Below are positions 15,191 to 38,974 of a stretch of DNA of 64,000 nucleotides, piece after piece. Origin of the DNA: an uncultured candidatus Porisulfidus sp. (GTDB taxonomy: Bacteria > Pseudomonadota > Gammaproteobacteria > Poriferisulfidales > Poriferisulfidaceae); the NCBI GenBank assembly GCA_965116025.1, contig OZ220480.1, forward strand, positions 1,056,001 through 1,120,000, given 5' to 3'. Under the pieces are notes generated by a model. The model had not been told where the DNA came from, searched no databases, and saw only the letters and a list, made by a program, of their open reading frames with translations. Positions within the stretch are counted from its first letter, which is position 1; every line of letters starts with the position of its first letter. The position numbers were made by a program, and so were the translations under genes.

Positions 15191-15198
15191 TTCGCGTC

Positions 15199-18043: not shown

Positions 18044-18060
18044 CGCTTGGGAAGGTCCCG

Positions 18061-18441
18061 ATGAGATTCTTCGCGGACCACTGCGTGATGGAATCGGTGT
18101 GTCGCTTGCTGGAAAGGCGCGGGCATGAGGTGATTCGGCTGAAAGACAAGTTGCCGATTGATGCGCCAGATCCCGTCGTTGCCAGACTCTCCGAGGCGCA
18201 GGAGGCGATATTGCTGACCCTTGACAAAGACTTCAAGAAAATCGCTCCGCGCATACCAAAGAACGCGAAAAATCGTTTCAAGAAACTGAGTCGCGTTCAA
18301 CTCGAATGCCATCCAAATATGGAGAAGCGCGTGCTGGCCACCTTGGATCTCATCGAGTTTGAATGGGAGCAAGCGCAGAAGCGATCAGACAAACGCCTGC
18401 ACATGGTAATCCGCAAGGGCAGCATCACTACACACCGCTAA
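18061..18441 (+). CDS. DUF5615-type PIN-like protein (probable toxin)
   Basis: MRFFADHCV...GHEV...DAPD...ILLTLDKDF; downstream of the DUF433 gene. Confidence 0.82.
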   Translation: MRFFADHCVMESVCRLLERRGHEVIRLKDKLPIDAPDPVVARLSEAQEAILLTLDKDFKKIAPRIPKNAKNRFKKLSRVQLECHPNMEKRVLATLDLIEFEWEQAQKRSDKRLHMVIRKGSITTHR

Positions 18442-18521
18442 CCGGGAAGAACGTCAGTTGACCGCTATTACCGCATGGGATTGCTGGCCGACCGCAAAGG
18501 CGATGATCCTTTAGGGAACTA

Positions 18522-21458
18522 TTAGACGATCTGACGCCGCGCCAATTCGGCGAAGAGGCCGCTCCGAGCCATGAGTTGTTCATACTGACCGGTCTCGACG
18601 ACCCGGCCCTCTTTCATCACGAATATCTTGTCGGCATCGCGAATCGTGCTCAGTCGGTGGGCGATGACGATGCGCGTGATGTTGAGCGTTCGGAGCGATT
18701 CCTGAACGGTCAATTGAGTTCGGTTGTCAAGAGCGCTGGTCGCTTCATCGAACAGCATGATCCGCGGCTTGCGGGCCAAGGCGCGGGCGATCAGCACCCT
18801 TTGCTTTTGTCCACCGGATAGCCCGGTACCGCCCTCGGGTAGCATCGTATGCATCCCCATCGGCATAGCCCGGATATCGGCCTCAAGCCCCGCGGCCCGG
18901 GCGGCGGCCCAAGCATCTTCCATGGCTAACGAGGAAGAGCCAGAAATGTTCTCGAAGATGCTCGCGGCCACCAACTTTCCGTCCTGCATCACAACGCCCA
19001 TTAGGTTTCGGACTGTTGGCAGGTCGAGATGCAGGAGGTCATTGCCGTCAATCAGAACCGCTCCCGAATCGGGTCGCTCGAATCCGAGTAGCAACCGATA
19101 GATCGTCGACTTCCCGGAACCGGACGGTCCGACGAACGCCACATAATCGCCTTGCCGGATCTGGAAAGATACATTTTCTACCGCGTTGGGCGCATCTGGC
19201 AGATAGCGGAAGGTGACCCGCGCGAATTCAATGTGTCCTGTGAGGTCCGCCGGGACGAAACTGCTGACGCCGCTCTCGAGCGGACATTCGAGGATCGGCT
19301 GGACGCGCTCAAACAGCGGGATGGCGCTGCTGATCGTCGTCCACGCCGCGGTCAGGGCGACAACCGAGGTGGCGAACTGTCCGAACGCCGCGTTGAAGGA
19401 CAGGAAGTCCGCGAGGTCGAAGGAATCCTGCACCCCACCTTCGATAAGCGAATACCATATAAAGGCAAAAAGAACGAGCAGGGACAGGGGCATGAACATC
19501 GCGTTCACAGTGTGCTGGGCGGCCCCCCAGAATCGCGCGGTGAGAGTGGCGCGTCGCTGGGCGGAGAACTGCTCCGCCCAGAGCGCGAGCGCATAATATT
19601 CGGCGTTGGCCATCCGGAGCTTGCCCACCCCGGTGATCATTTGAAAAACGAACCCATCGATAAGTCCCTGCGTGCGAAAAGCGTCGCGGTAGTTGCGCAC
19701 TTGGCGCCGTACCAGGAACCATGATCCCGCGACGAGCGCGAGCGAGACGGCGCATGCGCAAAGGGCGAGCGTCCAACTGTAATAGAACAGCAGGGCGAGG
19801 CTAAAAACGGAGAACAGGCTGCTGGCCAGTCCATGCACGGTGGCGCCGGTCAGCAGTTGTCGGATCATGCCGACTCCATTCGCCCGGTCGGCCAGATCGC
19901 CCGCGGTGAAGCGGCGGAAGAATGATGTCGGCAACGAAACCAACCGGCTCCATATGGAGGCCTGAAGCTGTTCGTCGACCCGGCCTTCGATCCGCAATGC
20001 CGCCAAGGCCCCCACGACGTTGAACGCCGCGGCTCCCAGCGCGCCCAGTCCGAGCGCGCCGAGGGAGGCGATCCACATCGCTTGGTCCCCGCGTGGAATG
20101 ATCTCGGCCAGAAGCTCGCCCGTGATGATCGGTGTCAAAAGGGCGATCAGGCTGCCTAGGACGGCCATCGTGACCAATAGACGAAAATCTCTTCCGCACC
20201 ACCGGCGCAAGACATGCAGTAGCGCCGCCAAGCCAGTCCTGACGCGATCCGGTAGGGGAGCATACAACATAAAAGCGCGACGTTCGATTCTTTTGGCCGC
20301 CTTGCGGTCCACGGTCCGGCTCCACTCGGCCTCCGGGTCGATGGCGCGGTAAGAGCCGCGGCCTTTCGAAAGCACGGCCAGCGGCCGCTTCCCATCGGTC
20401 AAACGCCCGACAAAGGAAGGTCCGTCGCGCTTGTGCCAGTCGTCCGTAAGCGAGATCGCGCGCATCCTCATTCCGGAAAGACGGGCGAAGGAGGCGAGGA
20501 CCCTCGCGTCGGCCGACCCGTTCGCTACGTTTCTGCTTCTGGTTGAATTCGGGGTGCCGCCGATAGACTTGGCGACCAAATTCGCCGCTGAGAACAAAGG
20601 CGTGCGGTCGGCCGTTGATACCGCGACTTCGTCGCCTGTCGCGGCGTTAAGGACTCCGCTGATGTTTCGAAGGATCGTCGACGTGACCGCCTTCCGGTCT
20701 TTCCGGCTCATCCGGTTACGTTCCCGGGTGCTAGTGATCTCTCTTTCGTCCACGAGCTGCGCTGATCGCAACAGGAAGAAGTTGAAGCGGTCCAGGGCCG
20801 GCCAAAGCCGGTTAGTGCCCAGGAGCGCCGGTGTGCGCACCGCCGAGATCTCAGTGTCGGCGGTGAGGCGCAACCAAGTCCACTCCGACATCGGTAGGAG
20901 CGTCTCTGCCTCGATGGCGAACTCGGGATTTCCGATGAAGTGCGTCATCCGATCCGCCGAGATCCAGATGACGTCCGAATGATACGCGCCTACCGTCGAG
21001 CCAGCGGGGTAGGGGACGTTCGGATCGGCTTCAAGCAATTCAAGGTTGCGTGGAGGAAGAAGTTGGTTCCGGGACAGAAACTCTGACAGGCTCGATATCC
21101 ACCCGTCGATGAGGATCACCGTTTCGATGCTCAACATTTCCGCATCATTGAGTCTTGATCGCTCCGCCTCCATGATGATGGCGTCTCGAGACGGGACGGC
21201 TAGAAAAGAAAAGTTGTTCTGACCGTCTTCGGCGCACGGCAGGACCGGTCCGTCAAAGGCGGCTTGGCCAGTGGTGACGCGGGTGATGAAAGGGCTACGG
21301 AGGAGTGGCAGGTCGCTATCGCTCCTGACCGCGAAGATGTCCAGATAGCCCTGCGCGACGATCACGATGCGCTTGGGATCGTTCAAGATGACCGGCCTGA
21401 ACGCCCCCGTTTCATGGGGCGGGCCGGAGATTCGCGCGATGGATTCGGGTACGGGCAC
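18522..21458 (-). CDS. NHLP bacteriocin export ABC transporter (non-peptidase subunit)
   Basis: TM domain, GPSGSGKST, LSGGQKQR, FDEATSALD; long N-terminal extension; cluster context. Confidence 0.9.
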   Translation of the reverse strand: MPVPESIARISGPPHETGAFRPVILNDPKRIVIVAQGYLDIFAVRSDSDLPLLRSPFITRVTTGQAAFDGPVLPCAEDGQNNFSFLAVPSRDAIIMEAERSRLNDAEMLSIETVILIDGWISSLSEFLSRNQLLPPRNLELLEADPNVPYPAGSTVGAYHSDVIWISADRMTHFIGNPEFAIEAETLLPMSEWTWLRLTADTEISAVRTPALLGTNRLWPALDRFNFFLLRSAQLVDEREITSTRERNRMSRKDRKAVTSTILRNISGVLNAATGDEVAVSTADRTPLFSAANLVAKSIGGTPNSTRSRNVANGSADARVLASFARLSGMRMRAISLTDDWHKRDGPSFVGRLTDGKRPLAVLSKGRGSYRAIDPEAEWSRTVDRKAAKRIERRAFMLYAPLPDRVRTGLAALLHVLRRWCGRDFRLLVTMAVLGSLIALLTPIITGELLAEIIPRGDQAMWIASLGALGLGALGAAAFNVVGALAALRIEGRVDEQLQASIWSRLVSLPTSFFRRFTAGDLADRANGVGMIRQLLTGATVHGLASSLFSVFSLALLFYYSWTLALCACAVSLALVAGSWFLVRRQVRNYRDAFRTQGLIDGFVFQMITGVGKLRMANAEYYALALWAEQFSAQRRATLTARFWGAAQHTVNAMFMPLSLLVLFAFIWYSLIEGGVQDSFDLADFLSFNAAFGQFATSVVALTAAWTTISSAIPLFERVQPILECPLESGVSSFVPADLTGHIEFARVTFRYLPDAPNAVENVSFQIRQGDYVAFVGPSGSGKSTIYRLLLGFERPDSGAVLIDGNDLLHLDLPTVRNLMGVVMQDGKLVAASIFENISGSSSLAMEDAWAAARAAGLEADIRAMPMGMHTMLPEGGTGLSGGQKQRVLIARALARKPRIMLFDEATSALDNRTQLTVQESLRTLNITRIVIAHRLSTIRDADKIFVMKEGRVVETGQYEQLMARSGLFAELARRQIV

Positions 21459-21462
21459 GTTC

Positions 21463-23655
21463 TCAGCCTGACGTAATCAGGGTACGGTAAAGACCGTCGA
21501 TCTCGATCAGTTCATCGTGACGGCCTTCCTGAACGACCCGGCCGCCGTCGAGAACGATGATCCGGTCGGCATCCCGGATCGTGCTGAGCCGATGGGCGAT
21601 GATCAGACACGTGCAACCGCGCTGGCGGAGGTTGTCGTCGATCTCCATTTCGGTAGCGGGATCAAGCGCGGCCGTGGCCTCATCGAACACGATGATTTGT
21701 GGATTGGGCGCGAGAGCGCGCGCGATTTCCAAACGCTGGCGTTGGCCACCGCTCAGGTTTCGTCCGCCTTCCTCTATGGGCGCGTCGTATTTGTCCGGTC
21801 GGGCCATGATATCGTCGAGGATCGCGGCGCCGCGCAGGGCTTGGGCGACCTGATGGTTGCTGATGGTCGAATTCCAGAGGGTGATGTTGTCTCGCACGCT
21901 TCCCTCGAACAAGACGATTTCCTGATCGACATAGGCCAGGGTCTCAGCGATGTTGGTGGGGGACAGGTCCTGCAGCCGGTCGGCATCTATGCGCACGGTT
22001 CCGGACCACGGGCTGAGCAGGCCGCAAACCAGCTTGCCGATGGTCGATTTGCCGCTACCGGAACCGCCGACCAGAGCGATTCGTTGGCCGGGATTGATCG
22101 TGAGATTGAAATTCTCGATCAGCGGCGCCTCTTGCCGGTTGTAGCCGAAGGTGACGTTTTCGAGCGTAACGAAACCCAAGCTACGCGGACGCTCGCTATT
22201 GTCGGGTTCGCTCATGCCGCGAACGACTCGCAGATCCGACTTGTAGTTCAACACGTCGTCGAGTCGCGCGATGTCGGCCTTGACCGTTTGCAGGCTGGCG
22301 CCGAACTGGATCAAGCCCTCGATCGGTTGGGAGAAGCTACGCGCGAGGCTTTGAAAGGCGACCAGTCCGCCAACGGTCAGGACGCCCTCCAGAAGACGCA
22401 GGCCGCCAACACCAAGAATCGCGACGGTAGTCAGCGCGGTGAGCAACGGCGGCACGACGTTCAGAAGGTTGGTCAATCGGCCCAGATCCTGTTGGGCGTC
22501 CACCACATTGGTATGCATGCCGGCCAGACGCGAGAACAGGTCGCCCTCCGTGCAGTTGGCTTTCAAGGTTTCGATCATGCTGAGCCCAGCGACGGACGCG
22601 CCCGCGACCTTGCCCTGTTCTTTGAGCAGGCGACGGCTGGCATTCTCCCGGGCGCGAGAAACTAATTGAAGGGCGAACAGATTGATGGCCGTCATGGCCA
22701 ATACGACGAGCGTCAAGATCGTGTCGTACGCCAGCATGACCCCCGCATAGGCGATCATGGTGAGCATATTGATAGCGTTGGTGGCCAGTTCGCCCGATAC
22801 GATCCGCGCCACATTGTCGTTCGACGCGACTCGGTTGGCAATGTCTCCCGCGAAACGCTGGGAGAAGAACGTCATTGGCAGCGTCATGACATGCCAGAAA
22901 AACTGCGAGGTCGTGACCAGGGAGAGCTTGGTTTCCATACGCGCGAGACAGTGCTGCTGGAACCAGGTGAGCAAGCCATGCAGGACGGTCACGATTCCGA
23001 GGCCGATGAGGAGCGGCATGACGAGATTCTCGCTTCTCCCGACCAGAATCTCATCCACGAACACTTTGGAAATCGTTGGGACGGCGAGCCCTGGAACCAG
23101 CAACGCGAGCGTCGCCAATATGACGAACAGCAGCGGAGAACGCGCCCGGCCCAGACGAACGAACAAGCCCCGCAACAAACTCGGTCGCGCGCCGCCCCGT
23201 TCGAAACGCGGCGTCGGTTCGAATGCGAGACAGACCCCAGTAAATCCTTCGTCGAATTCCTGCATGGATATGCGGCGTGGGCCTTCGGCTGGATCGTTGA
23301 TGTAGACAAGACCGCGCCGGATGCCCTCAAGCACGACGAAATGGTTGAAATTCCAGAAAATGATCATCGGAAAGGGAAGGTCGAACAGGCGTCCCGGGTC
23401 GCGTCGGAAGCCGCACGCGTCAAGGCCGAGTTTCCTGGCCGCCCGCAACATGTTGATCGCCTTGCTGCCGTCGCGTGACACGCCGCAGCGCACGCGCATC
23501 TCTTCCAGCGGTATCCATTTACCATGATGCGCGAGAATCATCGCTAGACAGGCGGCACCACATTCCGTCGCCTCCATCTGCAGGATGGTGGGCACGGCTC
23601 GTCTGCCGCCATGCTTTCTGGAAATGTTCGGACGCAGCTTGATAGAGTCGTTCAC
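21463..23655 (-). CDS. NHLP bacteriocin ABC transporter with C39 peptidase domain
   Basis: LQMEATECGAACL, WNFNHFVV, INDPA, Walker A/B motifs. Confidence 0.93.
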   Translation of the reverse strand: MNDSIKLRPNISRKHGGRRAVPTILQMEATECGAACLAMILAHHGKWIPLEEMRVRCGVSRDGSKAINMLRAARKLGLDACGFRRDPGRLFDLPFPMIIFWNFNHFVVLEGIRRGLVYINDPAEGPRRISMQEFDEGFTGVCLAFEPTPRFERGGARPSLLRGLFVRLGRARSPLLFVILATLALLVPGLAVPTISKVFVDEILVGRSENLVMPLLIGLGIVTVLHGLLTWFQQHCLARMETKLSLVTTSQFFWHVMTLPMTFFSQRFAGDIANRVASNDNVARIVSGELATNAINMLTMIAYAGVMLAYDTILTLVVLAMTAINLFALQLVSRARENASRRLLKEQGKVAGASVAGLSMIETLKANCTEGDLFSRLAGMHTNVVDAQQDLGRLTNLLNVVPPLLTALTTVAILGVGGLRLLEGVLTVGGLVAFQSLARSFSQPIEGLIQFGASLQTVKADIARLDDVLNYKSDLRVVRGMSEPDNSERPRSLGFVTLENVTFGYNRQEAPLIENFNLTINPGQRIALVGGSGSGKSTIGKLVCGLLSPWSGTVRIDADRLQDLSPTNIAETLAYVDQEIVLFEGSVRDNITLWNSTISNHQVAQALRGAAILDDIMARPDKYDAPIEEGGRNLSGGQRQRLEIARALAPNPQIIVFDEATAALDPATEMEIDDNLRQRGCTCLIIAHRLSTIRDADRIIVLDGGRVVQEGRHDELIEIDGLYRTLITSG

Positions 23656-24902
23656 TGCGCGGTTATCTTCTTCAGTAGCGGGATCACCATGGTGATCGGG
23701 CGCTGGCTTCCGACCTTGATGTCCACGTTGGCGAGCGTTCCGGAAATCAGTGCCTCACCCTCTCCCTTGGTCGTGGTCCAAGCGACGCCGCTCGTAGTCG
23801 ATGGGTCGGGCACCAGTTTCACGCGGCTGGCGTATGGCGGCCCGTTCTGGGAGAAGATCTGGGCGAGCTCCTGATTTTGCAGCACGGTGACCATGCCACT
23901 AACGCTTACCGGAAACTCGGATACGCTCTCGACCACGCCCTTGACGAAACCATGCGTCTCCGGTTGCGTGGTCGCGGGAGAGACCAACACGTCCATTCCC
24001 GGCTCGACCCGTTTTCCATCGCTCGGTGGAATGTACATCAGCACCTCGACTTCTTCGCCCGAGCCAGTCTTGATGCTGAGCACGGGCTGGCCCGCGCCGA
24101 GCACTGAGCCTAGGGCGGCCTTGATCTCGATGACGCCGCCGGAGACCGGCGCCAGGATTTGTTGGGCCTGCAACCGCGTCTGGATCTCACGAGCCCGCGA
24201 GCGCGCCTCTTGGAGGCGGGTGTCGGCACTGTTCACCTGGACGCGGTGATCGTGCAGGCGCGTTAGCTCTCGCGCCTCCAGCGTCTCGATTTGGCGGGTG
24301 GTTTCGAACAACTCCTGCTGCGCGCGGTCGAAGGCCTGCTGGCTACGCTCCAGAGTGACCCGGGTCACGACGCGCTCCTTATAGAGTTGGCGGTGGCTTT
24401 CGAGGCGTTCACGAGCGGTTCGCACCGCCTGGCGACCGGTGCGTTCAAGCTGTTCGAGACGAGCCTGTTGCTTGGCCACGTTGTTTTTGAACAGCCGGTC
24501 CTCCGCTTCGAACGCCGCCTTGAGATTGCTTAAAGTCCGTTCGCTCTCCTTAAGCAAGGCGAGCGCGCTCCGGTAGCGCTCCTCCAAATCGGGGTTCACG
24601 GTCTTGGCGACGACCTCTCCCTTCTCAACGAATTGACCGACCGTGAAGGCGATATCGGTCAACGTGCCCGTGTCGGCGGCGACCGCGTCGATCACCGTGC
24701 CGCCGGTGTTCAGCAGTATTCCGCTGGCGTTCACATAATTGGAAACGGTTCCCAATACGGACCACGTCACCAGCGCGGCCACGAGCGCTATTGACGAGCA
24801 CAGCGCCAGCCATTGCTTGGGCGAGACGACTGAAAGCGCTCGGTCGAGCTTCTCGGGTTCGGACAAATGGTCCAACGCCGCTTTTCTGAACAATTCAACC
24901 AT
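23652..24902 (-). CDS. NHLP bacteriocin system HlyD-family secretion protein
   Basis: LFRKAALDHLSEPEKLD, one TM segment, coiled coil, barrel-sandwich hybrid. Confidence 0.9.
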   Translation of the reverse strand: MVELFRKAALDHLSEPEKLDRALSVVSPKQWLALCSSIALVAALVTWSVLGTVSNYVNASGILLNTGGTVIDAVAADTGTLTDIAFTVGQFVEKGEVVAKTVNPDLEERYRSALALLKESERTLSNLKAAFEAEDRLFKNNVAKQQARLEQLERTGRQAVRTARERLESHRQLYKERVVTRVTLERSQQAFDRAQQELFETTRQIETLEARELTRLHDHRVQVNSADTRLQEARSRAREIQTRLQAQQILAPVSGGVIEIKAALGSVLGAGQPVLSIKTGSGEEVEVLMYIPPSDGKRVEPGMDVLVSPATTQPETHGFVKGVVESVSEFPVSVSGMVTVLQNQELAQIFSQNGPPYASRVKLVPDPSTTSGVAWTTTKGEGEALISGTLANVDIKVGSQRPITMVIPLLKKITAQ

Positions 24903-24974
24903 ATGCGCGCACTATAACGAATCTCTTGCGAACGGTGCCGTAGCGATCAAGAGAAGCCGGGCAGACCGCCGTCC

Positions 24975-26441
24975 TTATTCCATCAGGTACAGGATCCCGG
25001 GAGCCAGTTTCCATTTCGCGTCGCGGGCCTCGCGGGCGAGGTCGGGCAGGCCCGCGACTCCGAGTTTTCGTGATGTCAGCGCGCCGACCGCGTCCAGCAA
25101 GCGGTAGGCTTCGACGATCACATCGCGCTCGGCCGAAAGCGCGTTGATCTGGCGCGTGACGACACGCCGTTCGGCATCCAGAACCTCCCGCGTCGTCCGC
25201 TCTCCGAACTCGGCTTCCCGCCTGATTCCCTCGAGCGCGGCGCGCGACGCGTCAACCGCGGTCGCGAAAGCCGCTTGGCGCTTTCGAGCGGCCTCTAGGT
25301 TCCACCAAGCGCTTTCAACCAGTTGTGACGCGTCGCGCACGGCGTTGAGCCGCTCGTTCCGGCGCTGGGCCTGAACATGCTTCGCTCGACGGATCCGCGC
25401 GCCTACCGCGCCCGCCTGATAGATTGGCAAGGTCAGTTGCAGCGACAGGCTCATTTCGTCGCTGCCCGGAAGATTCGTTTCGGCGAAGCCTGGAAAAACC
25501 GCTCCAGTTTGCCTCTTGGTCGCGGCCCTGAGATCAATGCGCGGTCCGAGCTCGGCGGCGGCCACGCGAACCGACGCTTCAGCGACGCGAGTGGCGGCTT
25601 CGGCGACGCGGACGGCGGGCCTCTGCGACCGAGCTATCTGGCGCGCTTCATCCAGGGTTCGCGGCAGGCCAGCTGGCAGGCCGGCTGGCTTGAGACCGTC
25701 GGGCACCAAGCCGATCAACTGGAGAAAGCGGACGCGTTGGACTTCCAGCTCGGTCGTCGCCGCCACCATTTCCGCGACGGCGATCTCTCGTTCCGCCTCG
25801 GCCTGAGCGACATCGGCGCCGGTCCGGTCCCCGACATCGTACTGCGCCTTGACGTCTCGCGCCTGCGCGTCGAACGCGGCGAGCGAAGCCGCCCGCAGCT
25901 CGGCAACCCGTTTCGCCCGGAGCGTGTCGAGATAGACCGTCGCGGCGCGAAGAAGAACGGCCTGTTCCCTGTTTTCCACGGAAGCGTGGCTCCGTGACAC
26001 GCCTTGAACGGCTCTTTGGAGCGCGGCGGAGTCGCGTCCGCTGCGAAACAGGTTTTGCGTGATGGAGAACGTCCAGGAGCGTGGAGAAGAATATTGGGCT
26101 CGGGCCGCGCCGGGAGGGAACGGCCAGTCGGAGGCGGTTCGCTGTCGACTGCCGCTGGCGCTGAACTGGAGCGTGGGCAACCACGCGGAGACGGCCTCCG
26201 GCACATCCTCGTGGCTCGCGCGCGCGGCTTCCCGGACCGCGTCCAGACCCGGGTTGGACATCGCGGCCTCGGCTAGCGCCTCCTCAATGGTTAGCGCTGA
26301 CGCCGGCGCCGAGGCGAGCGCGAGAGCGATGCCGGGCGCGGCGAGGCGGGAACGAGCGACGCGTGGTCGGAAGCGCGTTTTTCTTGGATGGGATTTCGCT
26401 CGGGGCGTTCCCGGTTGGTCGGATGATGGCGTCTCTCTCAC
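24975..26441 (-). CDS. TolC-family outer membrane efflux protein
   Basis: LTIEEALAEA..NP, QNLFRSG, GDRT..DV, LPIYQAG, GERTTREVLDAE; start uncertain (in-frame GTG at 26441 used). Confidence 0.85.
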   Translation of the reverse strand: MRETPSSDQPGTPRAKSHPRKTRFRPRVARSRLAAPGIALALASAPASALTIEEALAEAAMSNPGLDAVREAARASHEDVPEAVSAWLPTLQFSASGSRQRTASDWPFPPGAARAQYSSPRSWTFSITQNLFRSGRDSAALQRAVQGVSRSHASVENREQAVLLRAATVYLDTLRAKRVAELRAASLAAFDAQARDVKAQYDVGDRTGADVAQAEAEREIAVAEMVAATTELEVQRVRFLQLIGLVPDGLKPAGLPAGLPRTLDEARQIARSQRPAVRVAEAATRVAEASVRVAAAELGPRIDLRAATKRQTGAVFPGFAETNLPGSDEMSLSLQLTLPIYQAGAVGARIRRAKHVQAQRRNERLNAVRDASQLVESAWWNLEAARKRQAAFATAVDASRAALEGIRREAEFGERTTREVLDAERRVVTRQINALSAERDVIVEAYRLLDAVGALTSRKLGVAGLPDLAREARDAKWKLAPGILYLME

Positions 26442-26487
26442 GTCGCGCGCCGCCCGGCTCGGTTCGTTTTCCCCATCTTTGACGGGA

Positions 26488-28791: not shown

Positions 28792-30182
28792 TCCACCTGC
28801 TCACGGTCCTTTGGGGGGCCGCCGAGAATGAAGTCGCCGACGGTGCCCTCGACCACTGGGTCCAAGCCCGTGACCCGCGCGAAACGCGCGGAGTTTCCGG
28901 TGCCCAGGCCGCACGGGGAAAGACCGAGATCGGTCGCCACGAGGTAGAGAGTCTGATAGAGCGCCCCCACATTGCGCAGAGTCACGCCATAGGCGATTGC
29001 TCGGTACTTCCACATCACCCGGGCGAAGCGGGCGCTGAACGCCAGCACGATCTGCGGATTCGCCAAGTGCCCCGTCGCCACTCTCGCGTCCTCCACGATC
29101 GCTTCCACATCGGGCGTCCGGCTAGCGATCGCGACCAGTTCATGCGTCGCCGCGTCGTAGTGGTAGAAGCCGGACTCCAAGCCGTCGCAGCGGTCGACCA
29201 CCGGATAGATCTCGAGCTCGTAGCTGGCGCCGCCGGTGGGATAGGGCCGTCTCGTGACCTCGAAATCGCAAACCTTCCCCGTGATGCCGCCGACTTGGAC
29301 CGTGGAGCGGTCGAGAATCCGCGCGGCGCGGTCAAGCAACGCGCCCAAGTCCGCCAAGGAGATCGGGCGGTCCTCGTCGTAGACCCGCTCCGAACGTCGC
29401 CGCTCGAGAACCCGCGCGAGCGATTCTCCCCCGGCATCGTCCGGCGCGCCCGGCAACGCGATCCGCCGGCCGGGCCAGGGGGGGCGAACGCCGGGCAGCG
29501 GATCGAGCTGGCCGACGAATGGAAAGATGCCGCCGATCGGGTCGGCATGCCAGCCTGGTCGATGATGCCAGTGAAACAGCAGGTCGTGAAATTCCCACTG
29601 CGCCAAGGCCTCATCGCGCGGGTCGTCTTTCGGGCGCTCGGTCTCGAGAAAACCTTCCGCGGCCAGCGCGCGCCGAATGACGGGAATGTCCAAACGGCTC
29701 GGGTCAGGGAAAAGGAAGCGCGTGCCGGCTAGCGGAGATTCCAGCACCCAGTCTTGTCCAGCACGGCGCAGGCAGGCGAAGCGATCAAGGCCGGCCTCCG
29801 GCGACGGCATGTCATCGGCGAGGCGAGGCGCATGGCCGTCCCATTGCGGTTGCATCACGGCATGCTCGCCGGCATCGTCGATGACGACCAGTTCCATCCC
29901 CCGGAACCGGTAGAGGCTCTGCAGAGCGATGAGATAGGAGGCCGCGAGTGAAGGCCCGCCGGCTTCGATGACCGCGTCGCGGAGTTCCCGCAACGGGGCA
30001 CCGTCGCGAAGCAACGCGTTGGCCTTCTCGTACGCGCTCTTGTAGGGGGCGAAAGGGGGGCCGATGCCGTACGCCGGGTCGATGACGACGAGGGATTCGC
30101 CATCCGAAGATGCCGCCAGCTTTCGCCCGGCGGGCAGGCGGGCGAGGATGGCGGGCTCCTTGATCAGGTCCAGGAATCCCAT
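28788..30182 (-). CDS. SagB-type FMN-dependent azoline dehydrogenase with N-terminal extension
   Basis: WEFHDLLFH, RRRSER, RPYPTGGASYELE, RVMWKY, QTLYLVATDLGL. Confidence 0.92.
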   Translation of the reverse strand: MGFLDLIKEPAILARLPAGRKLAASSDGESLVVIDPAYGIGPPFAPYKSAYEKANALLRDGAPLRELRDAVIEAGGPSLAASYLIALQSLYRFRGMELVVIDDAGEHAVMQPQWDGHAPRLADDMPSPEAGLDRFACLRRAGQDWVLESPLAGTRFLFPDPSRLDIPVIRRALAAEGFLETERPKDDPRDEALAQWEFHDLLFHWHHRPGWHADPIGGIFPFVGQLDPLPGVRPPWPGRRIALPGAPDDAGGESLARVLERRRSERVYDEDRPISLADLGALLDRAARILDRSTVQVGGITGKVCDFEVTRRPYPTGGASYELEIYPVVDRCDGLESGFYHYDAATHELVAIASRTPDVEAIVEDARVATGHLANPQIVLAFSARFARVMWKYRAIAYGVTLRNVGALYQTLYLVATDLGLSPCGLGTGNSARFARVTGLDPVVEGTVGDFILGGPPKDREQVD

Positions 30183-30193
30183 TCGTCCCCCGA

Positions 30194-32509
30194 TCAGACG
30201 AACACCGCGACGGGGTTCAGGTTGGCTTCCGCGTTTGGCTGGGCGAGCCAGCCCATCTTGACCGGCACGTCATAGAGACGTCCGGGAGCGAATCGCGCCC
30301 AGAAATGCCGCATGCCCGGCACGATGGTTCGGGCGACCGGCATGCCGATATCCGGGCGGGTCTGGTCCAGGACCAGAAACTCCATGCCGAGATCCTCGAC
30401 CAGAGACCTGCAATGCTCGACATCCTCCCGCGTATCGGAGGTCCGGGGAGCGGGATAGCGCTCCACGCGCCGCTCGGGCAGGGTGGAGTCCGGCAACAGG
30501 TAGGGGTGATCGGTCACGCGGGCGTTCTTCCACCACCACAGGCTCTCGGGATCGTCGAAGAGATACCCGGTGCCGTCGGCTTTCACGTCCCGGACCGCGG
30601 TCAACTGCTGGTTCAGCTCGCATACGGCCCTGATGCCGGCGATATGCGGATCCAGATGGGCTCCCGCGGCGAACAGGATGTCCTCGCGATCCTTGTCCGT
30701 TCGACGCGATACCGTGGCGAACACCGGAATGCCGATGTCGTGGGTCAGGTCGATCATCCAGATGTCGCGGTGAAAGGAGGCGTAGTAGTCGCGCGCTTCG
30801 GAAAGATAGGGGTCGCCGAAGCTGTCGAGCGCCACCGCGGGAAGTCGCAGCCGGTTGTACCACCAGCAAGCGAAGGCGTCGCGCTCCACCAGCTCGAAGA
30901 ACCCTTGCAGAATGGCCTCCTCCAGGGTGTTGCCGGCCGCGCAGCCGTTCGTGTCCGGGCCGAAGAACAGCTGGTCATGCTCTTGCGGCATGGAGAAATA
31001 CAGCATTCCGGTGGGCAGGTATCGATGGCGCTCTCGCGTCAACGACCAGACCGGAGACCAGCTCATCTCCACGGTCGGATCGAAACGCTCGGGAACATAA
31101 GCGAATTTCCGTTTCAGCGCGTTGAGTTCCGCGGCATGGTCGTATTGCCAGTCGCTGTAGTGCAGAACGGTTTCCGGACGGATGGCCTCGCCCTCGCGAA
31201 AATCCGTGAAGCGGGCTCGGCGGTGGATCTCGTCTCCGCGGTAGGCGAAGGAATGTCGCTCGATGGCCTCGCATAGCGCGCTCGCCTCGGCTTGCTCGGG
31301 CGTGCTCCCCTTCCCGGAATTCAGCGAGCGGACGCTGTTGCGCAAAGCCAGGAGGCTACGCGCTTGCATGGCGAGGTTGGCGCCGGCCACATTGACATGC
31401 AACCAGGAATCCCGCTCATCGGTGATGCGCAGCAACCGGTTCACCACTCCCGTGACCGGACTGACGAGGTGCCGGTATCGGCGCACGGTGTCTTGTGGCT
31501 GCACGGCGCGAAAACCGCCGCTGGTCCGCACCGGTTTTGGGCTCGGGGAAAGTCGCACGGGCGAGGCCGGGCGGTCGACACGAAACAGCGCCGGGTCGCC
31601 GCAGGACTGGCACTGTGGCCGCCGCGCGACCGGATGGATAGAGGTCTCCATGCCGAGAGACTCCAACGCCATGGTATGGTCGTGGAGCGCGGCGCTTTCG
31701 CCGAAGACGACCCATTTCGCGAGTTCCAGGGCCGCCAGCCCGATCACGATGTCGAACAAGCGATCAGGCGTGCTTGAGGGGAACGCGAAGCCGGCCGGGA
31801 GGCCGCGCAGATAGTTCGCTACCTCGATATTGCTACCGATCCGGCTCGCGAGGCAGTCCCAGCATGGCGCGTCCTCATCACCGGGGCGGAACACCGGACC
31901 GAGCAGAGAAAAAACGCCCGCTGGCTTGACTAGAGCCCACGGAACGCCCGATTCCAGATGAACGCGGTTGGTTCGCGCGTGGGCTTCGTCCAGGTAATCG
32001 TCCGTGACGACGACCGAGAGCGTCGGCCTGTCCGGGCCAACGGCAAGTCCGAGGCTCTTGAGCGCGGCGCCGAGCCGCCCGTCGTCACCGGGCGCCGCGA
32101 TTCGGGCGGCGCCAAGACGTCGTTCCGCCCATCTTGGCGTGGCTCCCTGCGCGCACCAGAACGCGGCCGACGCCCGGCCCATGGCGAAGTCGGCCGAGAC
32201 GACGCAACCTTTGGCCGCGAGGGAAACGATGGCGGTCTGAACGCTTAGAGCCGAATGTCGCCCCGAAAGCTCAGTGATGATCTCGTGCCGGGTGAGGTTT
32301 CCCTCAAGCAAGGGCGCGAGGTCGCGATACAACTCTCCGATCAGAAGAACGCTGGCGGTCTCGGACGCCAGCAACAAGGATCCGTCTTCCGCAATGCGAG
32401 AAGTAAGATGAGGAGCCAGCAGTGGTCTTTCGACTATGCCTCGGTCGAATTCGGTGAACCGGCGCGGCGGCGCGAACGCCAGCTTCCATCCCGCTTGATC
32501 GACAGACAC
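30194..32509 (-). CDS. Fused TOMM cyclodehydratase (RRE/E1-like C domain plus YcaO), copy 2
   Basis: APCWDCL, RPQCQSC, NSGKG, ASALCEAIER, TNGCAAGNTLEEAILQGFFELVERDA; GTG 32509 follows GGGAG. Confidence 0.92.
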   Translation of the reverse strand: MSVDQAGWKLAFAPPRRFTEFDRGIVERPLLAPHLTSRIAEDGSLLLASETASVLLIGELYRDLAPLLEGNLTRHEIITELSGRHSALSVQTAIVSLAAKGCVVSADFAMGRASAAFWCAQGATPRWAERRLGAARIAAPGDDGRLGAALKSLGLAVGPDRPTLSVVVTDDYLDEAHARTNRVHLESGVPWALVKPAGVFSLLGPVFRPGDEDAPCWDCLASRIGSNIEVANYLRGLPAGFAFPSSTPDRLFDIVIGLAALELAKWVVFGESAALHDHTMALESLGMETSIHPVARRPQCQSCGDPALFRVDRPASPVRLSPSPKPVRTSGGFRAVQPQDTVRRYRHLVSPVTGVVNRLLRITDERDSWLHVNVAGANLAMQARSLLALRNSVRSLNSGKGSTPEQAEASALCEAIERHSFAYRGDEIHRRARFTDFREGEAIRPETVLHYSDWQYDHAAELNALKRKFAYVPERFDPTVEMSWSPVWSLTRERHRYLPTGMLYFSMPQEHDQLFFGPDTNGCAAGNTLEEAILQGFFELVERDAFACWWYNRLRLPAVALDSFGDPYLSEARDYYASFHRDIWMIDLTHDIGIPVFATVSRRTDKDREDILFAAGAHLDPHIAGIRAVCELNQQLTAVRDVKADGTGYLFDDPESLWWWKNARVTDHPYLLPDSTLPERRVERYPAPRTSDTREDVEHCRSLVEDLGMEFLVLDQTRPDIGMPVARTIVPGMRHFWARFAPGRLYDVPVKMGWLAQPNAEANLNPVAVFV

Positions 32510-32533
32510 TATGACAGCGCTCCCATGACCGAG

Positions 32534-32555
32534 CCCCGCGCGAGAGCGCGCGGGG
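32534..32555 (-). terminator. GC-rich stem-loop between the small NHLP genes and the maturases
   Basis: CCCCGCGCG-AGAG-CGCGCGGGG, perfect 9-bp stem, no U tract. Confidence 0.5.
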
Positions 32556-32579
32556 AGACAGGAAGGCGATTCGGCCTCC

Positions 32580-32873
32580 TTACTCGCTTTCTTTGTCCGT
32601 CGTCGCGGCGTCCCGATAGGTGGAAGGCGCTGGCAAAAGAATATGGACGAGGTCACTGGTGTTGAAGACGAGTTTCACCTTGGCCCCTTCCGGGAAATCG
32701 AAGCCCTCGGCCTTAAGAACGGCAGTCGGGTCGGCATCCATCTTCGCCTTGAAGTCGGGGTCGCCATAGTATTTCGCCACCACGTCCGCATAGAGTTGCT
32801 GGCGCTCCTTCAGATCTCCCGATGTAAGAAGATCGGTGACCAAGGCATCAATCTTCTCATTAGGCTTATTCAT
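32580..32873 (-). CDS. NHLP-leader-like protein with no double-glycine site and no core
   Basis: VVAKYYGDPDFKAKMDADPTAVLKAEGFDFPEGAKVKLVFNTSDLVHILLP, then a short acidic tail; strong RBS AAAGGAG. Confidence 0.85.
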   Translation of the reverse strand: MNKPNEKIDALVTDLLTSGDLKERQQLYADVVAKYYGDPDFKAKMDADPTAVLKAEGFDFPEGAKVKLVFNTSDLVHILLPAPSTYRDAATTDKESE

Positions 32874-32909
32874 GTTAGTCTCCTTTATTCTCTGTTAATT
32901 GTGAAAGTT

Positions 32910-32937
32910 CCGCGCTCCCGGTCTCCCGGGAGCGCGG
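32910..32937 (-). terminator. Stem-loop downstream of the precursor genes (terminator or mRNA stabiliser)
   Basis: 12-bp perfect stem CCGCGCTCCCGG/CCGGGAGCGCGG with a GAGA tetraloop on the minus strand, 10 nt after the stop codon. Confidence 0.65.
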
Positions 32938-32947
32938 CGATGCCTTA

Positions 32948-33364
32948 CTAGCTGGCGCTACCCGCGGTGCCGGCGGTGCCGGCCGTGGAGAATGAGCTGA
33001 AAAACGTGCTGGTCTGGAAGGTGCTGGCCGAGCTGACGCTCCCCGCGCTGCCAGCCGTGGCGCCTCCTGACACCGCGCTCAAGCTCTCGTCCGCCAAGCC
33101 CGTATTCGGGTCGGGCGGCAAGATGAAATGCACGACTTCATCCGTGTTCGCGACCACATCGACTTGCATGCCGGTTACGGGAACATCGAACCCGAATGCC
33201 GCGTACACCTCGCTGCCGCTGGCCTTATCGATCTCGACGCGGAAATCCTCGTCGCTCCGATAACGGTCAGCCGCCTCGAGGAATCGCTCGTAGCTTTTCG
33301 TGTATGTTCCCATCGCCGTTGGCGACATATCGATATTTTCAAAAAAATTTCCTGCGGCGTTCAT
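32948..33364 (-). CDS. NHLP-family RiPP precursor A
   Basis: Leader VVANTDEVVHFILPPDPNTGLADESLSAVSGG; core ATAGSAGSVSSASTFQTSTFFSSFSTAGTAGTAGSAS; ATG 33364 follows AGGAG. Confidence 0.9.
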   Translation of the reverse strand: MNAAGNFFENIDMSPTAMGTYTKSYERFLEAADRYRSDEDFRVEIDKASGSEVYAAFGFDVPVTGMQVDVVANTDEVVHFILPPDPNTGLADESLSAVSGGATAGSAGSVSSASTFQTSTFFSSFSTAGTAGTAGSAS

Positions 33365-33433
33365 AATTTTTTTCTCCTGGAGTTTTTGTCCGAAAGGATA
33401 GTTACTGGACATCCGATGACGTCGCGCGACGCG

Positions 33434-33823
33434 TCAGCCGGCTGATCCTGCCGATCCAACGGTGGACGCGCTGCCAAGACTGGAAAAGGAAGTGAAAGTG
33501 AGGAAGGTGCTCGCCGACCCGACAGTGCCGGCCGTGCTGGCCGTGCTGCCGCCGGAAATCTGGCTCAACTGCTCGTCCGCCAGATCACTGTTCGGATCGG
33601 GCGGCATGACGAAGTGCACCAGCTCATCGGAATCCATCAGAAACTGACAATCGATTCCTTCCAAGCGCGTCATTCCGAACTCGTCGAAGACATCGCTATT
33701 GTCGCCACGGTCAATCCGGTCACGGAAAGCCGCGTCGTTGCGGTAGCGGTCAGAAATGGCGACGATGAGCTCACGACGCTCGTCGTTCAATGTCATTTCC
33801 TGCATGAATTGTTCGCTTTTCAT
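33434..33823 (-). CDS. NHLP-family RiPP precursor B
   Basis: Leader LVHFVMPPDPNSDLADEQLSQISGG; core STASTAGTVGSASTFLTFTSFSSLGSASTVGSAGSAG. Confidence 0.9.
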   Translation of the reverse strand: MKSEQFMQEMTLNDERRELIVAISDRYRNDAAFRDRIDRGDNSDVFDEFGMTRLEGIDCQFLMDSDELVHFVMPPDPNSDLADEQLSQISGGSTASTAGTVGSASTFLTFTSFSSLGSASTVGSAGSAG

Positions 33824-34167
33824 TAGCTTGCTCCATGTCGATTATGGACTCCCATTCTATACCATGTTCCCATGCGCATGCGAGAGGGCATTGGGACTAA
33901 ATGCAGGATGGCGCGTCACTCCGCTGGTGGCGACTGATAGAGACGATCCGGGGCGGGGGTGGGTTCTCGGATCATAGAGTTTCGGCTTTATCGAGCTCGT
34001 TGCGCGTCGGGCCTCGCTCACCGCGCCAACGGATTGATAGGGTCCGGCCTTCGGCCCTTCTGACCTTGTGGAGACGTGGGGGCGCGACGGGCGATTCTGA
34101 TCTGAGCGAATCTGTTCTGTGAGGAACCGGAGGCCGCGCGCAGGCAGGTTCGGATAGGCGAGGCCGT

Positions 34168-36681
34168 TCATGCTGGGTGGACGCTCGCCAGACGCGCGAA
34201 GGCGACGGCAAGCGCGGGAGTTCCGTCTATCCCCGAAAGATCGTGCCGATCATCGATCCATCTCTCGGCGAACCAGCTTTCCAGTTGATCGCGGTCTCGC
34301 CTCATGCGCGTCGCTGCCCGCCGGTCGGCGCAGACCGGCTCCGCATGGTTGGGGTCCAACCAAGGAGCGAGGCGGGGCAGGGCCGAAGGCGCATAAGGTC
34401 GTTGCGGTCCATGCCTCTCTGGAACCGTGCCGCCGAGGGCCAGCGCCGCGTCCTTCCAGCCAGCGAGGCCGGACACGAAATCGCTCCCGGACCGCATCCA
34501 CGCTTCTTTTTCCAAAGCACTTCGGTACACCATTCGCGCGTCCTCCCGCAGACAGGGCTCGCGCGCCAGCACTTGCAGGAGTCCGCCAACGCCGACCGCG
34601 TATCCGACTCCCATGTCTTGGCTGAAGTTCATGGATTCGGCATAATCGCGCGCCGCTCCCCTCAGTGTTTCGCGCGCGATAGCCGCCAAGTCCGTGCGGC
34701 CGAGCCTTTCGCCCAGCTCCAGCAGCGCCCGAGCGATTCCCGCGCGGCCCGAGAGAATATCGATGGAGAGTGGTGCCAGAAAACGCCTTCCGAAGTGAAC
34801 ATCATGCATCATGCCGATCCAGGTCGGGTACCCGCAATCGTTCGTCACGGCCAAATCCTGAACTTCGGTAGCGATCTGGTCCGCCCAAGCCAGAAGATCC
34901 CCCGGTTCCGCGGGAGCCGCCTGGCCACGAACCGGGGTTCGCCGTGGCGGATTGGCGGCGCGCGCGGAGAACGATGAGCGCAACCACGCCAGCCGCTCTC
35001 GGTCGGTCGCCTCGGTCATGGTTCCGAACGCGGCGCGCATGGTGGCTATCGCGTCTTCCTCGAAAGCGTCCCGCCGCGCCTCGCCCTCCACTCCCAGAAG
35101 GTCTCGAGAGGCCGGAGCGGTCAGGAACAGTGGAATGTCGAGACGGCGCATGTCGCGCACTGCCGCCTCGCGGAGCGCGCCGGACAACCCGGCATAGCGA
35201 GGCAACATCTTGTGCAAGGCGATCTCGCGCCATACGCCATCCGACAGGGTGCTGGGAAGGAGGGATTCCTGAACGATCCGGTAACAGGTCCACGTGTCAA
35301 TGAGGAGGAAGCGAAGCTGCGCGTCCGGCACGCTCTCGAGAGCCGCCAGGATCCGATCTTGCGTCGCCACCGAGCCCAACTCCCGGGAGACTCGGAGATA
35401 GCCGTCCTCAAGAGCGTCGAAATGCGCCGCGCTGTCCGCGAAATCGCCGGACTCGTAACGCGGGGCATATCGGTCTTCTTTCCAGACGAACAGGCCGTCT
35501 TGCTCTACGGCCTTCATCGGCGTGCGGTGTTCCCCTGGTTGGCAGAGGCAACCCAGATCGGTTGGCTCCAGACCTTCCCTGGTCGACATTTGGAGTGGCA
35601 ATATGCCAACGTTGGCGACTCTCATGCTGAAGCTGATTGCGTCCTCGTCAACCAAGCGTCGTATTTGTGGCGGCCACGGCGAGGTCGGCTGTAAAACCGT
35701 TTCGAAATCAACGAACCGCGGCGTGGGGCCGTCGGCGATCAGGTTGTCGAACCAGAAATCGGTCGCGTTCATGGTCTGGAGCAACGCTAGCCACCCGCCG
35801 AGCGCCTGGTAGAACCGGTCGGCGTCTCCGGTGTCGGTGACGGGTCGTGGCGCGTATTCCGTTTCCCAGGCATAGCCCGCGCGCGGTACCGTGGAAGGCG
35901 GCGAGAGATCGACGCTGGAAATCAAGCCGACGATTTCCTGCATCACGCCCGCGATTCGCAGATCCTTAGGTTTGAACACGACCGAGCCATTGGCGAAACG
36001 CAGGATCGCGACCGACCGCCCTCCGGCGTGCGGGTCGCCAAGTCCGTGCTCAATGCTGATCAGCAATCCGGGATCCCCGCCGCCGAAGAAGCGGCTGGAC
36101 AGTTCAGCCCGGTCGTTAGCCGCATGGCGCAGCATCCGAACAAGATCCGAACGCCAGTCGACCATCGCGCGGCCGAGCGCGTAGGCCAGCGCTGGGCTGC
36201 GGGCTAACCTCGCCTCCCAAGTCGATTTCGACACGCCCAGTCTGGCTTCATACCGCATGGTCTGCGTCAGGATCGAGCGGAAGCGCCATTCGAGATGCGA
36301 AATGGCTCCATCCAGCGCGTTGGCGCCGCGCGGCAGACCGTCGGGCCATTCCGCCTCAGCGCAACTCCGCGCCCATGAATAGACATCTGAAAAGGGCGCT
36401 TCGGTATCAGCCAGCCGGCTAAAGATTTCTCGAAAGGCGCGACCCCAGTCCGGCGTGGGGCCCTCAAGGCGGACATCGCCGAATCTCGCCAGATAAGCGT
36501 CCAAAGACAGCCCTAGGGTCTCGGCATGCGAGCCCAGCGCGCGCCGTGATCCGAATGCCTTGAGAAGCCTGTCCTCGCGGCGAGCCCAGGAGTCGGGGTC
36601 AGTGGGGGTCGAGATGAACGGCCCGTCGCCACCGCGCTCTGGTGGCGGCGACGCCCGAGCGATGAGAATATCGAGATCCAT
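34168..36681 (-). CDS. LanM-like dehydratase (DUF4135) with degenerate, truncated LanC-like domain
   Basis: GLGDPHAGGRSV, VFKPK, TDFWFDNL, FVDFET, DIPLF; C-terminal SGRAG and DFVSGLAG repeats but no WC/CHG zinc motifs. Confidence 0.85.
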   Translation of the reverse strand: MDLDILIARASPPPERGGDGPFISTPTDPDSWARREDRLLKAFGSRRALGSHAETLGLSLDAYLARFGDVRLEGPTPDWGRAFREIFSRLADTEAPFSDVYSWARSCAEAEWPDGLPRGANALDGAISHLEWRFRSILTQTMRYEARLGVSKSTWEARLARSPALAYALGRAMVDWRSDLVRMLRHAANDRAELSSRFFGGGDPGLLISIEHGLGDPHAGGRSVAILRFANGSVVFKPKDLRIAGVMQEIVGLISSVDLSPPSTVPRAGYAWETEYAPRPVTDTGDADRFYQALGGWLALLQTMNATDFWFDNLIADGPTPRFVDFETVLQPTSPWPPQIRRLVDEDAISFSMRVANVGILPLQMSTREGLEPTDLGCLCQPGEHRTPMKAVEQDGLFVWKEDRYAPRYESGDFADSAAHFDALEDGYLRVSRELGSVATQDRILAALESVPDAQLRFLLIDTWTCYRIVQESLLPSTLSDGVWREIALHKMLPRYAGLSGALREAAVRDMRRLDIPLFLTAPASRDLLGVEGEARRDAFEEDAIATMRAAFGTMTEATDRERLAWLRSSFSARAANPPRRTPVRGQAAPAEPGDLLAWADQIATEVQDLAVTNDCGYPTWIGMMHDVHFGRRFLAPLSIDILSGRAGIARALLELGERLGRTDLAAIARETLRGAARDYAESMNFSQDMGVGYAVGVGGLLQVLAREPCLREDARMVYRSALEKEAWMRSGSDFVSGLAGWKDAALALGGTVPERHGPQRPYAPSALPRLAPWLDPNHAEPVCADRRAATRMRRDRDQLESWFAERWIDDRHDLSGIDGTPALAVAFARLASVHPA

Positions 36682-38897: not shown

Positions 38898-38974
38898 TGC
38901 CGATGGCCCTTTTATGCTCCGCTCAACGTGAAAGGTTCGCGCTCTCGGTCTCCTAGGAGCGCGGCGATACCTTA

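Follow-up and report, generated by a model that had tools for sequence, protein, structure and literature searches.

Organization of the locus

The window, by which we mean the whole stretch of 64,000 nucleotides analysed here from an uncultured candidatus Porisulfidus sp., carries eleven co-oriented genes on its minus strand at positions 18522–36681, all of which are open and full length according to open reading frame (ORF) reading and profile searches. The genes encode, in this order, a LanM-like enzyme, two precursors with leaders of the nitrile hydratase leader peptide (NHLP) type, a leader-only NHLP protein, a YcaO cyclodehydratase (YcaO1), a SagB-type dehydrogenase, a second YcaO (YcaO2), a TolC-family channel, an HlyD-type protein, an ATP-binding cassette (ABC) exporter with a C39 peptidase and a second ABC protein. 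A first-pass annotation of this DNA had listed the same genes as one co-oriented block in the same order, and all are confirmed by the ORFs and by curated profile models. The cluster is real and intact, and we assign it, with a probability of roughly 60%, to the dehydrazoles, a class of peptides synthesized ribosomally and modified post-translationally (RiPPs), as an uncharacterized compact variant.

Dehydrazoles were defined by Pei, Zhu and Nair in 2023 from clusters in which a YcaO is paired with a LanMbC, the term for a DUF4135 protein with a cyclase-like domain devoid of zinc ligands (PMC10676384). As described there, the cca cluster of Chryseobacterium carnipullorum produces carnazolamide: an NHLP precursor acquires eight azoles from CcaB and CcaC and then eight dehydroalanine (Dha) residues from CcaM. 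Eight of the 20 Ser, Thr and Cys residues are cyclized and dehydration occurs at Ser only; CcaM acts only on a Ser preceding an azole, requires its own C-domain but not the leader, and forms no lanthionine. According to the same account, related clusters number about 50 and come mainly from Proteobacteria and Actinobacteria; one combines two YcaO/dehydrogenase pairs with a single LanMbC and several precursors, and a relative with a second YcaO next to TfuA is also described (PMC10676384).

The window DNA is confirmed by contigs of two sequencing runs (X1 and X2), which also show strain differences; the runs listed included none of RNA. The longest ORFs overshoot the likely true starts of three genes, which were placed at GTG 32509 (YcaO1), GTG 26441 (TolC) and ATG 33364 (precursor B). 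An ORF of 104 residues at 33857–34171 was not counted as a gene: it has no family match and the second strain has +2 and +1 indels inside it. A promoter and terminator scan gave nothing above shuffles.

The LanM-like enzyme

The gene at 34168–36681 (minus strand) encodes a predicted short LanMbC-like dehydratase of 837 residues, which matches DUF4135 (PF13575) with an E value of 6e-61 (207 bits against a cut-off of 29) and ends in a miniature LanC-like domain of about 255 residues. The protein-atlas annotation is DUF4135/LanM only. Against the full LanM model TIGR03897 the protein scores 260.6 bits, below the cut-off of 304, with a match that ends at position 708 of 932, and the LANC_like match is fragmentary (E = 0.0027, profile positions 2–109 of 350). 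An AlphaFold2 (AF2) model based on an alignment (A1) of 36 relatives, which also underlies the conservation counts given here, has a predicted local distance difference test (pLDDT) score of 92.6 and a predicted template-modelling (pTM) score of 0.92. It superposes on CylM (Z = 28.8 for 723 residues) and LicM2 (Z = 28.7). Residues 580–837 of the model align with LanCL1 and GCR2 (Z = 12.2–12.4) over about 215 of about 400 residues, spanning the whole toroid, and in the model the C-domain is a miniature LanC-like toroid. This domain is strongly conserved, with His813 present in all 36 relatives and His757 in 34, while Cys784, found in 32, is its sole conserved cysteine. The canonical Cys-Cys-His zinc site of lanthipeptide cyclases is missing, as in the dehydrazole enzymes, and in this respect the description of the protein in the first-pass annotation as a cyclase-dead LanM is supported.

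The catalytic residues of CylM include Asp252, His254, Lys274, Asp347, Asn352, Asp364, Arg506 and Thr512 (PMC4550811). In HMMER alignments these correspond to Asp216, His218, Lys237, Asp308, Asn313, Asp325, Arg457 and Thr463 of the LanM-like protein, and all eight are invariant or at least 90% conserved in the 36 relatives. His349 of the CylM DxH motif is replaced by Trp310, which is invariant (36/36). An Asp-x-Trp-x-Asp-Asn loop is found in all 11 of the short enzymes inspected and in four further DUF4135 proteins, from L029 (966 residues), L022 (a 969-residue frame), L031 (1020 residues) and G006. The genes of L029, L022 and G006 adjoin YcaO genes, and the genome of L031 (G026) has a LynD-like YcaO about 1 Mb away. 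The usual Asp-x-His loop occurs in twelve proteins, namely 11 of the 12 canonical LanM matches (P0085–P0096; P0091 gave no pattern match) and L030.

The tryptophan bears on a different explanation, that the product is a plain linear azole-containing peptide (LAP) of the thiazole/oxazole-modified microcin (TOMM) type, with the YcaOs and SagB making poly-oxazoles and the LanM-like protein only phosphorylating, acting as a scaffold or serving other substrates. The loss of the DxH histidine would suit such a role, as would the TIGR03897 score below the cut-off and the inverted or unlinked position of the gene in relatives (see below). We nevertheless consider it unlikely, since the eight other catalytic residues, those for elimination included, are conserved, the family retains a mean column identity of 54% over its whole length in the 36 relatives and the gene co-occurs with a LynD-like YcaO in all five genomes checked. 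The H349A mutant of CylM is described as slow but still completes dehydration (PMC4550811), and CcaM offers a precedent for dehydration by an enzyme of this kind (PMC10676384).

Precursors and their cores

Precursor A (33434–33823, minus strand; 129 residues; TIGR03793 E = 3.6e-7) and precursor B (32948–33364, ORF to 33412, minus strand; 138 residues from an ATG that follows AGGAGA; E = 7e-10) each consist of an NHLP-type leader, a Gly-Gly and a core of 37 residues without cysteine, which in precursor A is made up of Gly, Ser, Thr, Ala and Phe. The two are 48% identical to each other, and orthologues of precursor A are 81–88% identical to it. Together with the leader-only protein they score 30.0, 38.6 and 38.4 bits (E = 4e-7 to 7e-10) against TIGR03793, the model of NHLP leaders, all below its cut-off of 50.9. 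Each core contains 11 Ser and 7 Thr (counted by eye), or 18 of 37 residues, and no Cys. A Ser/Thr-rich core behind an NHLP-type leader is what a dehydrazole precursor has, and the argument of the first-pass annotation that Cys-free cores can yield neither thiazoles nor lanthionines stands for this locus.

The wider set of cores, 38 distinct sequences from 21 database relatives of precursor A and from the precursors read at related loci, has a composition of 27% Ser, 17% Thr, 16% Gly and 16% Ala, and 27 of the 38 contain Cys. The absence of Cys should not be taken as a property of the family: it belongs to the present locus and to one or two near relatives. The closest orthologues (81–88% identity) have Cys at core positions 2 and 17, where the present locus has Thr; because Thr and Cys exchange there among close orthologues, we read both positions as heterocyclized and not as lanthionine partners. 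A genuine hybrid of class II lanthipeptide and azole peptide, thioether rings included, would agree with the overall LanM fold of the enzyme and with the cysteines of the related cores. It is refuted for this locus by the lack of Cys in both cores, and the C-domain without a conserved Cys-Cys-His set, the fragmentary LANC_like match and the description of carnazolamide as free of lanthionine (PMC10676384) make its probability close to negligible.

Residue order in the 38 cores was compared with within-core shuffles; the sequences are related, so the z-values overstate their independence. Ser-Thr is enriched (109 observed, 62.6 expected; z = +7.4) and Thr-Ser is depleted (15 observed, 62.8 expected; z = −7.6). 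Ser, Thr or Cys is depleted before Gly (26 observed, 107 expected; z = −11.5) and enriched before Ala (194 observed, 107 expected; z = +12.8). The directional Ser-Thr bias fits a rule by which Ser is dehydrated before an azole-forming residue, as an indirect hint, and the recurring Ser-Thr pairs would be the likeliest candidates for Dha–methyloxazole units.

A hairpin of 12 G+C base pairs lies immediately after the stop codon of precursor B (32910–32937, minus strand). It has no U tract and a minimum free energy of −30.3 kcal/mol (z = −5.7; none of 200 shuffles fold as well), and it is duplicated at 38911–39005. It may be an mRNA-stabilizing or attenuating element between the precursor and enzyme genes.

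YcaO proteins and SagB

YcaO1 (30194–32509, ORF to 32656, minus strand; 771 residues) is a predicted cyclodehydratase in which an E1-like region with a RiPP recognition element (RRE) is fused to the YcaO domain (E = 7e-97); TIGR03604 and TIGR03882 are above their cut-offs and a winged-helix domain is matched with E = 1e-5. YcaO2 (26488–28791, minus strand) is a second fused cyclodehydratase (YcaO E = 1e-101, with TIGR03882 and TIGR03604 again above their cut-offs) and matches the cyanobactin heterocyclases LynD (PDB entry 4v1t; E = 4e-171), TruD (2e-167) and MusD (4e-160) over its full length. Between them lies the gene of a SagB/ThcOx-type azoline dehydrogenase dependent on flavin mononucleotide (28788–30182, minus strand; 464 residues), with 156 bits against a cut-off of 78 for TIGR03605, E = 5e-16 for Nitroreductase and E = 7e-13 for the ThcOx N-terminal domain. 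All three genes fall within 8 kb of one another on one strand, in the synteny of a dehydrazole cluster, and the scores of TIGR03882, TIGR03604 and TIGR03605, all above their cut-offs, are those of a TOMM or linear azol(in)e cluster.

YcaO1 and YcaO2 are 62% identical, with 46–56% per 50-residue window in the N-terminal leader-binding half and 64–84% in the catalytic half. Each paralogue is 88–90% identical to its own orthologue in the related loci L001 and L003, and both are therefore maintained. The N-terminal divergence does not prove a different leader specificity, since this half is also the less conserved one between clusters. A division of chemistry is conceivable, in which one YcaO forms azolines and the other a different product of amide activation, such as an amidine or thioamide. 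The biosynthesis of bottromycin involves two YcaOs with distinct roles, and the dehydrazole relative with a second YcaO beside TfuA (PMC10676384) might be read in the same way. Both proteins here are full-length fusions of the LynD type with the closest similarity in the catalytic half, no TfuA or other partner gene is found among the eleven genes, and the related clusters of G006 and L021 manage with a single YcaO, so that we regard such a division as very improbable.

Elsewhere in the same genome, outside the window, there is a third LynD-like YcaO, 55–60% identical to the pair described here, and two NHLP-type precursors with a five-residue Cys-rich tail after the leader (G000:C1:799652–800671, 811343–811432 and 1989981–1990202; L019, L017 and L012). 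One of these precursors scores 72 bits, above the TIGR03793 cut-off. They probably form a second, different RiPP system.

The leader-only protein

Between precursor B and YcaO1 lies the gene of a protein of 97 residues with the NHLP fold (32580–32873, minus strand). It matches TIGR03793 with E = 8e-10 over profile positions 1–62 of 77 and is limited to the structured NHLP nucleus; recognition tail, Gly-Gly and core are all absent. A profile of its family matches the solved NHLP precursor 8tb1 (E = 4e-14) and the α subunit of nitrile hydratase (E = 1e-14). The AF2 model of the protein is poor (pLDDT 60.8), and Foldseek found nothing for this model at E ≤ 0.001, its best-ranked entry being 8tb1 with E = 2e-3.

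The gene is present in all five short-enzyme loci with available context, with lengths of 74–129 residues (mostly 74–97), and was not found in the available DNA of two long-enzyme loci, L022 and L029. A search with the family gave 275 database matches; the 120 listed are mostly 56–88% identical to the window protein, and at least 15 of these 120, the window's own included, could be traced indirectly to assemblies with short-enzyme matches. Between the window and G006 the protein is better conserved (64–69%) than the true leaders of the precursors (30–45%). A predicted complex of the LanM-like enzyme with the leader-only protein scored 0.08, which weighs neither way.

Export genes

The remaining four genes encode a predicted export machine. 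The TolC-family outer-membrane channel (24975–26441, minus strand) scores 252 bits against a cut-off of 225 for TIGR01844 (OEP E = 3e-53), and the HlyD-type membrane fusion protein of the NHLP system (23652–24902, minus strand) scores 254 bits against 156 for TIGR03794. ABC1 (21463–23655, minus strand; TIGR03796, 1025 bits against 853) has an N-terminal C39 peptidase (E = 1e-35), which cleaves after Gly-Gly, and ABC2 (18522–21458, minus strand) is a second permease/ATPase without a peptidase domain that matches TIGR03797 over residues 286–977 (798 bits against 709). TIGR03796, TIGR03797 and TIGR03794, all above their cut-offs, are the trio of NHLP bacteriocin export.

An N-terminal stretch of about 285 residues in ABC2 (residues 1–285; window 20604–21458) falls outside TIGR03797, and Pfam gives no match for it at E ≤ 0.01. 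In L021, G006 and L022 this stretch can be aligned from residue 6–18 onwards, which makes it a conserved domain without a family match.

Related clusters

The short LanM-like enzyme has relatives in at least 84 database clusters at 37–86% identity, nearly all of 820–900 residues and with DUF4135 only. The set of YcaO, SagB and DUF4135 enzyme recurs in L001, L003, L021 and G006. L001 and L003 match the window in gene content, down to the two YcaOs, the two precursors and the leader-only gene; their proteins are intact and 76–90% identical to those of the window, and the LanM-like gene is encoded there on the other strand. At L021 a single YcaO is accompanied by a single precursor. The L002 genome separates the LanM-like gene from its two YcaOs by about 15 kb, and its YcaO2 orthologue (G460:C1:324322–326599) appears as two overlapping pieces with an in-frame TGA, which may reflect decay of this copy or a fault of the assembly.

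In G006, which belongs to the same genus as the window, a single YcaO, SagB, a short enzyme and exporters are combined with about 16 genes for precursors, whose cores are hypervariable and built of Gly, Ser, Thr and Ala, in some with Cys (L027, 10740–19289; L028, 557–11576), an arrangement like the prochlorosin library. A more distant cluster of the same class, L029 (G122; 2639–19945), has two YcaOs, a SagB-like protein of 509 residues, a nitroreductase of 235 residues, the Trp-loop DUF4135 protein of 966 residues and at least four NHLP precursors with like cores, and is interrupted by transposase genes of the insertion sequence (IS) type. It resembles the two-YcaO cluster described in PMC10676384.

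The system is sparse in reference genomes, with matches in 5 of 61 relatives sampled and, counting the genome of the window itself, in 3 of 401 genomes sampled from the phylum. A metagenome scan with the family alignment gave three loci and a genome scan with the single LanM-like protein also gave three.

Duplicated segments and neighbouring genes

At about 2.4 kb from the LanM-like gene, on the far side of cobB and outside the block given in the first-pass annotation, is a third precursor-like gene (39045–39375, minus strand). It is 88% identical to precursor A in DNA, has a core of 14 residues and carries a one-base frameshift at 39200; the extra base is present in run X1, as in the assembly, and missing in a contig of run X2. 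It lies in the stretch 38911–39375 (minus strand) and is followed by a duplicated 3′ end of precursor B, hairpin included, and by a repeat of the segment upstream of TolC. The repeats of cluster segments around it are 26331–26472/38751–38892 and 38697–38764/39485–39552.

The frameshifted copy amid these partial duplications, together with the split YcaO in the L002 genome, could suggest that the cluster is a decaying or silent remnant, without a product, in a small genome (2.0 Mb). This is improbable: all eleven genes are open and of full length, the L001 and L003 orthologues are intact and 76–90% identical in protein, and among four close relatives the cores of the precursors are conserved.

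The flanking genes, assigned by Pfam search, are unrelated to the cluster. A pair of DUF5615/PIN-like and DUF433 proteins lies on one side, together with a DNA methylase and a thioredoxin-like protein. The genes of the C-5 cytosine DNA methylase, the MerR/DUF433 protein and the DUF5615/PIN-like protein lie directly beside the cluster on the plus strand (16303–18441), and these genes may be a toxin–antitoxin-like pair and a mobile-DNA remnant that marks the cluster boundary. On the other flank are a CobB-type amidotransferase and NrfD, the latter within a run of redox genes at 39488–46095 (minus strand). Read by eye, the translations of the other genes in this run are those of an iron–sulfur protein, a small multihaem-like protein, a large fusion of flavoprotein and ferredoxin, an iron–sulfur protein with the CCG motif and a cytochrome-b-like membrane protein, and the run as a whole has the look of a Dsr/Hdr-type electron-transfer module.

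Comparison with known systems

The locus agrees with the dehydrazole class on every testable feature. It shares with the cca cluster an NHLP precursor with a core rich in Ser and Thr (and Cys in cca), a YcaO, an azoline dehydrogenase and a DUF4135 dehydratase with a LanC-like domain that lacks the zinc site, and in both a linear azole/Dha peptide is the expected product. The combination had been put forward in the first-pass annotation as one for which no characterized cluster was recognized. That label fails, since the dehydrazole class as described already contains it, including a relative with two YcaOs (PMC10676384); the type of architecture is therefore matched by a characterized cluster, whereas the cores are not the same.

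Several features set the present cluster apart from cca. The LanM-like enzyme has 837 residues and a C-domain of about 255, compared with 1015 and about 370 in CcaM, and the shortfall of about 180 residues is largely in the C-domain. There are two YcaO paralogues, two or three precursors and Cys-free cores. Leader removal and export are assigned to the C39-ABC protein, the second ABC protein, HlyD and TolC, whereas cca has an S8 protease. Neither a radical-SAM epimerase nor a methyltransferase is present, and there is an additional conserved leader-only NHLP protein. The absence of any radical-SAM family match among the eleven genes (18522–36681) also separates the cluster from the proteusins of the polytheonamide type, which have such an epimerase. 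Literature searches for later work on dehydrazoles, LanMbC, carnazolamide, DUF4135/YcaO and NHLP oxazole/dehydroalanine peptides gave no characterized short-enzyme cluster; supplementary Figs 4, 5 and 21 of PMC10676384 may already depict the family.

Haft, Basu and Mitchell in 2010 tied NHLP precursors to fused cyclodehydratases and a three-gene exporter (PMC2887384). In common with the NHLP/Nif11 TOMM clusters described there, the locus has an NHLP-type leader, the Gly-Gly, TIGR03882/TIGR03604, TIGR03605 and the exporters TIGR03794, TIGR03796 and TIGR03797; it differs from that description in its DUF4135 enzyme, dedicated TolC and leader-only protein and in precursors that score below the TIGR03793 cut-off. 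The cyanobactin enzymes LynD, TruD and MusD are related to both YcaOs over the full length, and SagB has a ThcOx-type N-terminal domain. Unlike in cyanobactin pathways, the leaders are of the NHLP type, there are no PatA or PatG proteases and no macrocyclization, and the only cyclizable core residues here are Ser and Thr. Goadsporin and the thiopeptides combine the same two modifications in the same azoles-first order (PMC10676384), but their dehydration proceeds through glutamyl-tRNA and split LanB enzymes, whereas an ATP-dependent DUF4135 kinase/eliminase is predicted here. With the class II synthetases CylM, LicM2 and ProcM the LanM-like protein shares the two-domain fold (Z of about 29) and the kinase and elimination residues; it departs from them in a TIGR03897 score below the cut-off, a miniature cyclase domain without Cys-Cys-His, Trp in place of the DxH His and, at this locus, Cys-free substrates.

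Proposed pathway

If the locus is of the dehydrazole type, the ribosome would make precursors A and B, each with a structured leader resembling nitrile hydratase and a core of 37 residues delimited by Gly-Gly. The LynD-like YcaO1 and YcaO2 would bind the leaders through their winged-helix domains and cyclize some of the Ser and Thr residues to (methyl)oxazolines at the expense of ATP, and the SagB/ThcOx-type flavoprotein would oxidize these to (methyl)oxazoles. The short LanM-like enzyme would then phosphorylate and eliminate each Ser directly before an azole to give dehydroalanine, with the zinc-less mini-LanC domain as a structural or substrate-binding part that has no cyclase role. Finally, the C39-ABC/ABC/HlyD/TolC machine would cleave after Gly-Gly and export the linear 37-residue peptide across the two membranes. 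The order of the reactions, the restriction to Ser before an azole and the choice of modified residues are modelled on carnazolamide, and a C-domain that supports binding instead of cyclization is likewise suggested by the dehydrazole precedent. A linear peptide with azol(in)es and dehydro residues, released after Gly-Gly, was also what the first-pass annotation had envisaged, and it remains a plausible expectation. Its further proposal that three enzymes partition the 18 Ser and Thr residues has to be replaced by an order of events if the precedent holds: azoles are formed first and only then is Ser before an azole dehydrated (PMC10676384).

A number of points weigh against this assignment. 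The product is a prediction from the genes. In the pathways of LynD and TruD, the nearest YcaOs of solved structure, these enzymes act on Cys. The comparison with CcaM (WP_073335633.1) relies on the published description and the shared DUF4135 domain, and the LanM-like protein is the smaller of the two both overall and in its C-domain, as given above. Trp replaces the DxH His, and the slowness of the CylM H349A mutant (PMC4550811) counts here on the unfavourable side. The tie of the LanM-like gene to the operon is also loose: L001 and L003 have it in divergent orientation, and the L002 genome has it at a distance of about 15 kb. Lastly, dehydration of Ser only and cyclization of 8 of 20 residues in carnazolamide mean that the precedent would not fix the number and positions of the modifications in the present cores.

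Implications

Dehydrazoles are a young class with one characterized member and no known biological activity. The locus points to a populous subfamily, rich in uncultured bacteria, with a smaller dehydratase, a changed active-site loop and a conserved NHLP-fold partner. More speculatively, and with rather low confidence, the LanM-like enzymes of about 840 residues could be a separate sub-class of azole-dependent dehydratases. In them a stacking contact might join the invariant Trp to the azole next after the target Ser, which would be the structural basis of the azole-first order, and the ever-present NHLP-nucleus protein might serve in trans as a subunit or activator of the dehydratase or the YcaOs, the two together freeing the pathway from individual leaders. 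If this is true, a single set of enzymes could act on a library of hypervariable cores, with up to about 16 members as G006 has, and all-oxazole/Dha peptides would be made at the present locus. As a compact cluster with all-Ser/Thr substrates, the locus offers a test case for how YcaOs and a dehydratase share identical residues, for the benefit of two YcaO paralogues and for the way in which protein-like leaders act.

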